Shown piece after piece: positions 43,729 to 46,547 of a stretch of DNA of 64,000 nucleotides (the stretch's first letter is position 1; every line of letters begins with the position of its first letter). The position numbers and the translations under genes were made by a program. The notes under the pieces were generated by a model, which did no database searches, was not told where the DNA came from, and saw only the letters and a list, made by a program, of their open reading frames with translations. The stretch is from the NCBI RefSeq assembly GCF_011045215.1, contig NZ_CP049201.1. One strand, given 5' to 3'. This DNA comes from Escherichia coli. GTDB taxonomy: Bacteria; Pseudomonadota; Gammaproteobacteria; Enterobacterales; Enterobacteriaceae.

Positions 43729-44078
43729 TTATTCTACGCTGTCGGTATTGGTGTATTCGTTAATCAGCAGGTTAACCAGCCACAAAAAGCCATTGAGAAA
43801 ATTATTGATTTTACATGGAATTATTATATTGCCAATCCTTGGTTTTTAAAAATTGTGCATAGTGAAAATCAAAGTAAAGGTGTGCATTATGCAAAATCAC
43901 AGCGTCTCTTAGAAATTACCCATGCGCACTTGCAGTTAATGGAATCCTTATTGGATGAAGGGAAGAAACACAATATTTTTAAGCCAGATATCGACCCATT
44001 TCAGGTGAATATTAATATTGCTGCGCTTGGGGGATATTATTTGATCAACCAGCATACGCTTGGCCTGGTTTATCCGGT
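43729..44078 (+). pseudogene. ytfA: TetR-family regulator fragment (C-terminal ligand-binding region only), apparently interrupted at its 3' end by the IS element
   Basis: Open frame from 43729 (GTG 43855 is the first listed start) encodes ...[30 protein letters not shown]...[16 protein letters not shown]..., resembling a TetR C-terminal domain; no N-terminal HTH is encoded upstream; from about 44080 the frame reads antisense through IS sequence. Confidence 0.6.
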
Positions 44079-44130
44079 GCGCCGTAAAACCCCGTCCTTC
44101 AGGGCGGGGATATACGGCGCGGTTTTCCAC

Positions 44131-44558
44131 CTAACCAGGTGTTTGCTGTTGTTCAATGTATTGACGGATGGCGGATATTGGCGCACCTCCGCAGCTACTG
44201 GCAAAATAGCCAGGACTCCACAAAACGCCTTTGTAGTAATACCTGACTGCAATATCTGGTCGATCTCGTCGCAGTAACCTACCCGATACGCCTTTGAGGC
44301 TGTTTACCAGACTGGATATCGCCAGTTTGGGAGGATAGTTAATTAACAAACGTGATCTGGTTCGCCATCCATTTCAACCAGTTCAGCTTCAAAATCAGCA
44401 CATACCTTTGAAAAGTAAGTGCGTAGTTTTTCTGTCGCGTCATGGTCAAAAATCTGGCGTCGGTATCTGGTGACAAAGACCAGGTGAACATGCATCAGGA
44501 AAACACAATGCCTTCCACGCCGGATATCGGTTTCTTTTTTCACAGACCAAAGTATCAT
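44131..44558 (-). pseudogene. tnpA: IS200/IS605 TnpA (Y1 HUH transposase), disrupted by a frameshift
   Basis: Two adjacent ORFs in different frames (44343..44558 and 44131..44349) together give a ~143-aa TnpA-like protein: ...HCVFLMHVHLVFVTRYRRQIF...EPDHV / [26 protein letters not shown]...[26 protein letters not shown]; the break is inside the HUH motif. Confidence 0.8.
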
Positions 44559-44565
44559 TTGGCCT

Positions 44566-45774
44566 GTGAAACGACTACAGGCATTTAAATTCCAGTTAAG
44601 ACCCGGTGGTCAACAGGAGCGTGAAATGAGGCGCTTCGCAGGCGCATGTCGTTTCGTTTTCAATCGTGCTCTGGCACGTCAGAATGAGAATCATGAGGCC
44701 GGTAATAAATACATCCCTTACGGGAAAATGGCTTCCTGGCTGGTTGAGTGGAAAAATGCCACTGAAACGCAATGGCTTAAAGATGCCCCGTCACAGCCAT
44801 TGCAACAGTCACTGAAAGACCTTGAGCGGGCTTACAAAAACTTCTTCCGGAAGCGGGCTGCTTTTCCCCGATTCAAAAAGCGGGGACAGAATGATGCATT
44901 CCGCTACCCGCAGGGCGTTAAGCTCGATCAGGAAAACAGTCGTATTTTTCTGCCGAAACTTGGCTGGATGCGCTACCGGAATAGCCGTCAGGTCACGGGT
45001 GTTGTGAAAAATGTCACTGTCAGCCAGTCCTGCGGTAAGTGGTACATCAGTATTCAGACTGAAAATGAAGTATCAACTCCGGTTCACCCTTCAGCATTAA
45101 TGGTCGGACTGGATGCTGGCGTGGCTAAACTCGCCACGCTGTCAGATGGCACAGTCTTTGGGCCTGTAAACAGTTTTCAGAAAAACCAGAAGACGCTGGC
45201 GAGACTTCAGCGACAGTTAAGCCGCAAGGTCAAATTCAGCAACAACTGGCAGAAGCAGAAACGCAAAATACAGCGACTGCATTCCTGTATCGCAAATATC
45301 CGCAGGGACTACCTTCACAAAGTCACAACGACCGTCAGCAAAAACCACGCAATGATAGTCATTGAGGATTTGAAGGTCAGCAACATGTCAAAGTCAGCAG
45401 CGGGTACGGTCAGCCAGCCGGGGCGCAATGTCCGGGCAAAATCAGGTTTAAACCGTTCGATACTGGATCAGAGCTGGTATGAAATGCGCCGCCAGCTTGA
45501 GTACAAGCAGCTCTGGCGTGGCGGTCAGGTGCTTGCTGTTCCGCCAGCGTACACAAGCCAGCGTTGCGCGTGCTGTGGTCATACAGCGAAAGAAAATCGC
45601 CTGTCACAAAGTAAATTCAGATGCCAGGCATGTGGATATACAGCGAACGCTGATGTAAATGGCGCTCGTAACATTTTAGCGGCGGGGCACGCCGTTCTTG
45701 CCTGTGGAGAGATGGTGCAGTCAGGCCGCCCGTTGAAGCAGGAACCCACCGAAATGATTCAGGCGACAGCCTGA
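44566..45774 (+). CDS. tnpB: TnpB (OrfB) of an IS200/IS605-family element; RuvC-like RNA-guided endonuclease family
   Basis: 402-aa ORF from GTG 44566; N-terminus [13 protein letters not shown]...[12 protein letters not shown] typical of TnpB; RuvC-I (VGLDAGV), RuvC-II (IVIEDLKV), zinc finger (CACCGH...CQACGY) and RuvC-III ([10 protein letters not shown]) all present; an alternative ATG at 44626 with an AGGAG SD would give 382 aa. Confidence 0.9.
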
Positions 45775-45908
45775 ACGTAGCAGGGATCCACGTCCTTCAG
45801 GGCGTGGAGGATGTCAACACATCAGTATGGTTTCACCCCAGGCACTGGAAGCCAGACGTAAGGTCATCAAAGAGACAATCCTTAGCTGGCTTTTGGTTGA
45901 CCCTTCAT

Positions 45909-46547
45909 CTACCGCGCACGAATAAAACTGCCATCCGGCTGGCGGGTGAACAGGACCTGTTGATTATTCCCCGTATCAATGGTTAAGCCCGTCACCACGC
46001 CGCTGGCGTTCTGGCGGATTTTCACCATCTGCCCGTTTTGCAAATTACTCAGCGGCTTACCCGCGCCTTCTACCTGCGCCATTGCATAGACATCGGTAGC
46101 GGGCAGTCCGTGGTCGCGGAACAGCTGCGCCATCGTTTTACCGGGTTCGACACGGTAAGAGCGCCATTGATTATCAATTCCGCTATCTGGCTGGAATGGT
46201 TGCGTTTGGGTAGTTTGCGGCTGTTCTTCTGGCTGGCCTTCCTGTATAGGTTCTGGAGCGACCGGAGCCACCTGATCAGGATCATTTTGTGGTGTGACTA
46301 ATTGCGCCCGCAGCTGTTCTTCTGTCGGCGGTTGTGATTGTGACTGAATATCTAACTGCGCTTCACGCGTCACCACCGGCGCGTTGAGCGTATCATCAGA
46401 TGGAAGCAGAAATCCGACCACCAATACAATGGCGGCAATAATGATCCCCCGACGATGCATCGGCGGCAGCGGGTCCATGAAGCGAAAATTGTCCGGCGCG
46501 TGCCAGACTTTCTCCAGGGTTGGTTTTAGTTCAAAGCGCCCGGGCAT
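45909..46547 (-). CDS. ytfB: Cell-division protein YtfB (OapA/LysM-like domain)
   Basis: 212 aa from [21 protein letters not shown]; TM anchor, Pro/Gln-rich linker, C-terminal OapA domain. Confidence 0.88.

Follow-up and report, generated by a model that had tools for sequence, protein, structure and literature searches.

The two hairpins described here are, with a probability of roughly 0.93, the left (IP_L, 44090-44109) and right (IP_R, 45788-45807) subterminal imperfect palindromes of a 1,744-bp copy of IS609 (44074-45817), an insertion sequence of the IS200/IS605 family that lies directly 3' of a TTAT within ytfA of Escherichia coli. All coordinates refer to the window, which is the whole 64,000-nt stretch of DNA that was analysed. 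The end hairpins of IS609 are already known, this being a catalogued insertion sequence with textbook IS608 architecture. The features of the window copy are listed below in the order of their position.

43855 to 44073 and 45818 to 45925: the two halves of ytfA around IS609, from the PGAP annotation and the comparison with K-12
44070 to 44073, + strand: TTAT target tetranucleotide and left cleavage site (C_L), in flanking DNA outside the element; found 5' of CCGGTG at five sites and kept in the K-12 empty site
44074 to 45817, + strand (the 'top' or active strand): IS609 copy, 1,744 bp, defined by the K-12 empty site, the same ends at five loci and the PGAP label
44079 to 44120, + strand: nested left-end hairpin, in which an outer stem (44079-44086/44113-44120) encloses IP_L
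44086 to 44089, + strand: AAAA, left guide (G_L), the 4 nt 5' of the IP_L foot, predicted by the IS608 rule to pair with TTAT
44090 to 44109, + strand: IP_L, CCCCGTCC-TTCA-GGGCGGGG, predicted TnpA-binding hairpin, from fold, repeat and covariation
44131 to 44558, - strand: tnpA (Y1/HUH transposase) pseudogene, with Y1_Tnp on both ORF halves and the PGAP label 'frameshifted'
44566 to 45774, + strand: tnpB (InsQ/TnpB RNA-guided endonuclease), intact, 402 aa, with Pfam domains OrfB_IS605, Cas12f1-like_TNB and HTH_OrfB_IS605
45640 to 45817, + strand: putative ωRNA scaffold, made up of the 3' part of tnpB and the right end and ending in IP_R, from the consensus fold; its 5' limit is approximate
45784 to 45787, + strand: GGAT, right guide (G_R), which is GAAT in relatives, as in IS608
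45788 to 45807, + strand: IP_R, CCACGTCC-TTCA-GGGCGTGG, from fold, repeat and pair changes in relatives
45808 to 45817, + strand: AGGATGTCAA, 10-nt right tail, with AG as the counterpart of the bases that form triplets in IS608 and with the right cleavage site (C_R), TCAA, at 45814-45817
45818 to 45833, + strand: CACATCAGTATGGTTT, right-flank DNA and putative ωRNA guide by read-through, from its match to the empty ytfA site beside TTAT and from the TnpB mechanism

Element boundaries and insertion site

The name IS609 was taken from the curated PGAP label of copies that are 99.8 % identical to the window copy, which served as a proxy for the ISfinder reference. These copies were the best megablast matches and occupy the same yjfZ-ytfB locus, where PGAP annotates an 'IS200/IS605-like element IS609 family transposase' (frameshifted), an 'RNA-guided endonuclease InsQ/TnpB family protein' and a TetR/AcrR pseudogene that is split by the element. 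In the window, too, the copy splits the TetR-like gene ytfA between yjfZ and ytfB, and a TetR-family C-terminal domain is encoded in its left flank. Of 5,426 complete E. coli genomes searched by megablast, 5,015 contain the IS609 stretch, with a median of 2 and a maximum of 9 places per genome.

Five features of the IS605 group within the IS200/IS605 family were found in this copy. It has a gene for a Y1 HUH TnpA, though inactivated in the window, next to a tnpB with OrfB_IS605 and zinc-ribbon/TNB domains; subterminal imperfect palindromes in the same orientation at both ends and no terminal inverted repeats; an insertion 3' of a short target, with a scarless empty site and no target-site duplication; and, at the level of sequence, 4-nt guides that pair with the cleavage sites.

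The empty site was searched with a 526-nt query in which both flanks were joined at the predicted IS609 ends. This query aligned in one piece, over all 526 nt, in K-12 and many other strains, and at least 80 % of it was covered by a single place in 3,273 genomes. The empty ytfA site of K-12 reads …GGCCTGGTTTATCACATCAGTATGG…, with GGTTTAT|CACATCAG… at the junction, and the window junctions read …GGTTTAT[C]CGGTG……GTCAA[C]ACATCAG…, which gives an insertion of 1,744 bp with no target duplication and a 1-nt ambiguity at the junction. The ambiguity was settled by four other IS609 sites in E. coli (ydcL-ydcO, which holds insQ of K-12, yedK, yeaR/DUF1869 and gltX-yfeD), because these copies share the ends of the window copy and their surroundings then diverge, reading TTAT|CCGGTGCGCC…GGATGTCAA| followed by differing bases. 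All five independent sites read TTAT|CCGGTG…GTCAA|, with the right-hand repeat of TTAT absent, and therefore the element spans 44074-45817, its target is TTAT and its right end is TCAA. The sequence-only reading had treated the hairpins as the main evidence for the boundaries. They are consistent with the boundaries, lying 16 nt (left) and 10 nt (right) from the independently mapped ends, but the main proof comes from the empty site and the five independent insertions, which are the stronger evidence. In K-12, which has the empty site, ytfA is nevertheless annotated as a pseudogene with a missing N-terminus, and therefore no functional gene was inactivated by the insertion in that lineage.

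Sequence and fold of the end hairpins

All motifs named in the sequence-only reading were recovered base for base on the + strand. They comprise the arms of the outer left stem, GCGCCGTA (44079-44086) and TACGGCGC (44113-44120), the inner-stem motifs CCCCG (44090-44094) and CGGGG (44105-44109) on the left and TCCACG (45787-45792) and CGTGGA (45803-45808) on the right, and TCCTTCAGGG at both 44095-44104 and 45793-45802. The positions and sequences thus stand, but the drawing of a 5- to 6-bp stem with a 10-nt loop was a misparse, as three more pairs form inside the supposed loop; the true shape at both ends is an 8-bp stem (8-9 bp) that includes one T·G pair and closes a TTCA loop of 4 nt. The two hairpins were also said to have the same orientation, and indeed both fold on the + strand and the inner hairpins form a 21-nt direct repeat of 90 % identity. 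The common 14-mer, CGTCCTTCAGGGCG, occurs only at the two ends within the 64 kb, with up to 2 mismatches allowed.

Folded as single-stranded DNA, the left end (GCGCCGTA-AAA-CCCCGTCC-TTCA-GGGCGGGG-ATA-TACGGCGC) reached -20.0 kcal/mol (z = -3.6), and 0 of 200 shuffles were as good. The right end (TCCACGTCC-TTCA-GGGCGTGGA) reached -12.1 kcal/mol over 61 nt (z = -3.0), with 3 of 200 shuffles as good. Extension of the right stem by a T45787:A45808 pair was considered and is disfavoured; judged by the register with the left end and by the IS608 rule, T45787 is the fourth guide base, paired with A45817, and the stem pair would compete with that role. The T·G irregularity was also considered as a conserved recognition feature and was rejected, the position often being C:G or T:A in relatives (IP_R pair 20-29).

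Guides and cleavage sites compared with IS608

In IS608, C_L is TTAC, 19 nt from the IP_L foot on its 5' side, C_R is TCAA and ends 10 nt 3' of the IP_R foot, and the guides AAAG (G_L) and GAAT (G_R) are the 4 nt 5' of each foot (PMC3201880, PMC5934647). The pairs formed there are C-3:G-35, T-4:A-34 and A-1:T-32, with A-2 unpaired, while base triplets involve A-10 and G-9, immediately 3' of the IP_R foot, and 'AT' follows the IP_L foot (PMC3201880, PMC5934647). The ends of IS609 were compared with those of IS608 by means of these published tetranucleotides and distances.

At the right end of IS609 the foot, G45807, is followed by AG…TCAA, exactly 10 nt to the end of the element and the same total as in IS608. 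G_R (GGAT) and TCAA give the pairs C:G, T·G and A:T, of which the T·G wobble is T45814-G45785 in the window copy, and G_L (AAAA) and TTAT give T:A, T:A and T:A. The left foot is followed by ATATAC and therefore has the 'AT' directly 3' of it that is seen in IS608, but the left linker is 16 nt long as opposed to 19 nt. Both elements have subterminal hairpins on a single strand and insert 3' of TTA(C/T) without duplication, the target being TTAC for IS608 and TTAT for the window copy. The guides are AAAG/GAAT in IS608 and AAAA/GGAT in the window copy, and AAAG/GAAT occur in relatives of IS609. IS609 differs further in the extra outer stem around IP_L, in a TnpA of only moderate similarity to that of IS608 (E = 7e-19) and in a tnpA that is divergent from tnpB, whereas in IS608 both genes share one orientation.

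The sequence-only reading had interpreted the hairpins as IS200/IS605 ends, and this is supported by the genes, the PGAP label, the empty site and the IS608-like spacing, tetranucleotides and strand. No biochemistry of IS609 was found in the literature searched, where the 25 best-ranked of 49 papers that mention the element appear from their titles and abstracts to be surveys, not studies of mechanism. TnpA binding, strand specificity and guide pairings are accordingly given here as predictions for IS609, drawn from the IS608 analogue and from covariation.

Relatives and covariation

Relatives were collected by a scan with intact TnpA, at one genome per species, which yielded 43 loci from Escherichia to Caballeronia and beyond, and their end sequences were extracted by BLAST and then aligned. 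The right tail AGGATGTCAA was invariant in 15 of 15 aligned relatives, and G_R was either GGAT or GAAT. Among 22 distinct left ends, the fourth base of the target and the fourth base of the guide were associated (Fisher p = 1.8e-4), with AAAA/TTAT in 13, AAAG/TTAC in 6 and 3 exceptions; in these, TTAC is combined with AAAA (L008) or with ATAT (the Buttiauxella copies). Since every insertion picks a new target in DNA external to the element, this covariation is functional and does not just reflect shared ancestry. Covariation of the same kind, between TAM and guide, has been described for ISGst elements (bioRxiv 10.1101/2023.03.14.532601). In the left ends of Buttiauxella warmboldiae (L016, L021, L022 and L023), which are flanked by TTAC, the guide position reads ATAT instead of AAAG, and this ATAT merges the inner and outer stems into one continuous hairpin (GTGCCTTATATCCCCG…CGGGGATATAAGGCAC).

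Compensatory changes were found among the relatives in IP_L, in IP_R and in the outer left stem. IP_R pair 17-32 occurs as C:G, U:G, A:U and U:A and pair 18-31 as C:G and U:A, and the stem variants seen were CCACG/CGTGG, CCCCG/CGGGG and CCATG/CATGG. In each of three structure tests, 0 of 500 column shuffles reached the observed covariation score, and controls with slid partners had 30-62 % of cells paired, compared with 90-96 % for the real structures. Within E. coli the IS609 population looks largely decayed, because point mutations are present in the stems of many copies (K-12 CCCCATCC; L004 GGGCAGGG; right-end CCTCG and TCATTCA).

Outer left stem and a 46-nt derivative

The nested architecture described for the left end is present, but its outer stem does not belong to the canonical IS608-type recognition hairpin and is an additional conserved structure. 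A perfect stem (TACGGCGC) is confined to the ytfA copies; at the other four E. coli loci the sequence is TAAGGCGC and a G·A mismatch results, and this position has been repaired in two ways, by A to C in the ytfA lineage and by G to T in Yersinia and Buttiauxella. Outer-stem pair 11-50 was C:G in 13, U:A in 7 and U:G in 2 left ends and unpaired in 0. A nested CGCC-GTAAA-hairpin-ATATAA-GGCG is kept even in L040-L044, in which TnpA is only ~50 % identical. On this pattern of changes the outer left stem is judged to be a real, conserved extra helix, evidently under selection for pairing. It overlaps G_L by one base, and its candidate roles are to belong to the TnpA substrate, to structure the 3' end of the tnpA mRNA or to block read-through.

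In four of the more distant loci (L040, L042, L043 and L044, from Photorhabdus and metagenome bins) the nested left hairpin has an AATGC loop and an extra T in the inner 5' arm. A second hairpin, AAAGCCCGnAGGGCTTT, lies between it and tnpA, and the flanking TTAG(C) suggests another target.

A 46-nt miniature IS609, CCGGTGCGCCGTAAAA-CCCCGTCC-TTCA-GGGCGTGG-AGGATGTCAA, was observed in E. coli plasmids, prophages and chromosomes (L051:1506-1551; L052-L057 at 1201-1246). It consists of nt 1-33 of the left end fused to the right tail through the common 14-nt hairpin core, and it is 100 % identical at a minimum of four unrelated sites (at least 4), each time directly 3' of TTAT: beside the terminase gene of a tyrosine-recombinase plasmid, in the nleD region, in a prophage tail-fibre assembly gene and on a plasmid near hok. 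About 428 E. coli records fall in the band of at least 99 % identity. When full-length IS609 was searched for at the tail-fibre site, the left flank proved mosaic, and most genomes aligned only from 9 nt left of the junction. The miniature form may be either a PATE-like single-hairpin mobile element or the product of recurrent deletion between direct repeats. A combined reading, in which the outer helix would contribute functionally to the left end (by placing the TTAT cleavage site, regulating tnpA expression or stopping read-through that enters from outside) and the 46-nt derivative would be a PATE-like element, mobile by means of one hybrid hairpin, is speculative and held to be rather unlikely.

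State of tnpA and tnpB

Compared with intact IS609 copies, which are 1,748 bp long, the 1,744-bp window copy has a 4-nt deletion in tnpA. The deletion (ATGG, + strand) lies after 44349 and was located against the intact L007 copy at the same site, whose TnpA is 143 aa long and related to the IS608 TnpA structure 2A6M. It turns …PDHVHLLINYPP… (…PDHVHLL…) into …PDHVC followed by a stop and destroys the HUH motif, and therefore the window copy is unable to move on its own. Both halves of the frameshifted gene still match PF01797 (Y1_Tnp; E = 4e-14 and 5e-19), and IS609 TnpA matches the TnpA structures of IS608 and ISDra2 with E = 7e-19 to 2e-17. The ends of the window copy are intact and match the consensus, and the copy could be mobile only with intact TnpA from another copy.

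TnpB of the window copy matches PF01385, PF07282 and PF12323 and, over its full length, the ISDra2 TnpB structures 8H1J and 8BF8 (E = 3e-54). At the non-ytfA loci, tnpA is a pseudogene with an internal stop or frameshift in K-12 and in 2 of the 3 others, being intact at yeaR (L005), and tnpB is intact at every locus examined. Because of this difference TnpB seems to outlive TnpA in E. coli.

Right hairpin and predicted ωRNA

The last 180 nt of the element gave a multi-stem consensus fold of 49 pairs that ends in IP_R, with compensatory changes at 14 of the pairs among 12 relatives. Rfam matches at E <= 1 between 43500 and 46500 were HgcC (E = 0.014), sot0042 and RAGATH-18, all below the gathering thresholds (for the sotRNA/HgcC matches 23.5 bits compared with 50, and 17.5 compared with 88), and were used as a lead, not as proof. 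HgcC and sot0042 are RNAs from tnpB 3' ends, with an 8-bp stem and a UUCA 'RE-like tetraloop' as their hallmark (PMC4615843), and a sense-overlapping transcript of the sotRNA kind has been reported for E. coli K-12 (Gomes-Filho et al. 2015, PMC4615843). IS609 resembles these RNAs in the 8-bp stem and UUCA loop at the tnpB 3' end, followed by GGAGGAnGUCA, but the Rfam families were built from archaeal sequences and IS609 scores below their thresholds.

In the TnpB model, ωRNA derives from the 3' part of tnpB and the right end, and its guide derives from the flank (bioRxiv 10.1101/2023.03.14.532601). The TnpB of IS609 is a full-length homologue of ISDra2 (Deinococcus radiodurans) TnpB, and IS609 is like ISDra2 and ISGst in that the target/TAM abuts the left end and that ωRNA is expected to arise from the right end together with the 3' end of tnpB; the TAM predicted for IS609 is TTAT, whereas it is TTGAT in ISDra2 and TTTAT/TTCAT in ISGst. 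By this model TTAT at 44070-44073 would also be the TAM for TnpB, and the right hairpin is probably also the last stem-loop of the TnpB ωRNA, transcribed in the tnpB sense. Such an ωRNA would read into the right flank, CACATCAGTATGG…, as its guide; cleavage of the empty TTAT|CACATCAG… site by TnpB would then be possible and would favour retention of the element. In the literature searched, nothing was found on TnpB activity or an ωRNA of IS609, or on the function of InsQ/TnpB in E. coli.

A possible long-range closing helix of the ωRNA was observed between 45674-45679 and 45809-45814 (alignment A3, columns 35-40/176-181), where A(C/T)ATTT pairs with GGATGT about 140 nt away. The GGATGT partner lies between IP_R and the TCAA end, and the pairs are conserved without double changes.

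Alternative explanations

E. coli genomes hold hundreds of REP palindromes, and both hairpins are G+C-rich palindromes in or next to non-coding DNA, features that could fit host sequences (REP/BIME units or intrinsic terminators of ytfA or its neighbours) flanking an inserted gene pair. The sequence-only reading had said that it would fail if REP or terminator sequences of this kind also flanked the insertion-free site. In K-12, however, both hairpins, the outer stem included, are absent from the empty site, and this already refutes such an origin, which is given practically no weight. The hairpins moreover travel with the element to four other loci, the stretch has a per-genome median of 2 places and a maximum of 9, a copy number unlike that of REP units, and the common 14-mer is found nowhere else in the window. 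Membership of the REP/BIME class is rejected on the low copy number and the absence from the empty site. An intrinsic terminator was considered and rejected as well, the T-runs (on the minus strand TTTTA, behind the inner left stem; on the + strand GGTTTTCC, behind the outer stem) being only 4 long and the terminator scan, on either strand, calling neither end hairpin nor the outer stem. A chance resemblance of two functionless inverted repeats is just as negligible. Palindromes that are short and G+C-rich occur often, and 33 inverted pairs were listed by the repeat finder within 2.1 kb, but the fold z scores of -3.6 and -3.0, the restriction of the exact 14-mer to the two ends and the conservation with compensatory changes from Escherichia to Caballeronia stand against chance, and the last of these already refutes it.

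A role mainly as RNA structures, not as DNA sites for TnpA, has more in its favour and is still considered very improbable. Here the right hairpin would be the terminal ωRNA stem-loop only, and the nested left hairpin would serve only at the 3' end of the tnpA mRNA, as its stabiliser or terminator, or would hold off external read-through in the way described for IS200. The right hairpin does lie inside a conserved, covarying RNA-like fold and matches the UUCA 'RE-like tetraloop' of sotRNA/HgcC; TTTTA follows the inner left hairpin on the minus strand, just after the tnpA stop, as GGTTTTCC follows the outer stem on the + strand; and tnpA is mostly a pseudogene and tnpB intact at the E. coli loci examined. 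These T-runs are, however, too short for the terminator scan, and a purely mRNA role on the left leaves unexplained why the hairpins at the two ends agree in sequence and in orientation on the + strand, antisense to tnpA. The guide and cleavage tetranucleotides, at IS608-like distances and covarying with a target outside the element, are predicted only by a DNA mechanism. The low weight applies to the version in which the hairpins act as RNA only, since DNA and RNA roles of the hairpins can coexist.

Proposed mechanism and significance

By analogy with IS608, each hairpin on the single-stranded + ('top') strand would be bound by one monomer of a dimeric Y1/HUH TnpA, and the cleavage sites would be read not by the protein but by the four bases that immediately precede the hairpin foot on its 5' side. 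G_L AAAA would pair with C_L TTAT, 16 nt upstream and outside the element, and G_R GGAT with C_R TCAA, the end of which is 10 nt downstream of the foot. By cleavage and strand exchange a single-stranded circle would be set free and the donor resealed without a scar, and the circle would reinsert 3' of another TTAT. GC skew is positive on the + strand throughout the window, and the strand that bears the hairpins is therefore the lagging-strand template. The IS200/IS605 family is reported to target the lagging-strand template (PMC6006769). The location of the top strand on this template is a single observation that is consistent with single-strand transposition.

The boundaries of IS609 in the window are fixed at 44074-45817, and ytfA is shown to be split by the element. 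The natural covariation of guide and target (AAAA/TTAT versus AAAG/TTAC) in enterobacterial relatives provides a small independent confirmation of the DNA-guide rule known from IS608 and ISGst. The window copy is transposase-dead but retains tnpB and both ends intact; it could therefore be mobilised in trans, and its TnpB could target the empty site.
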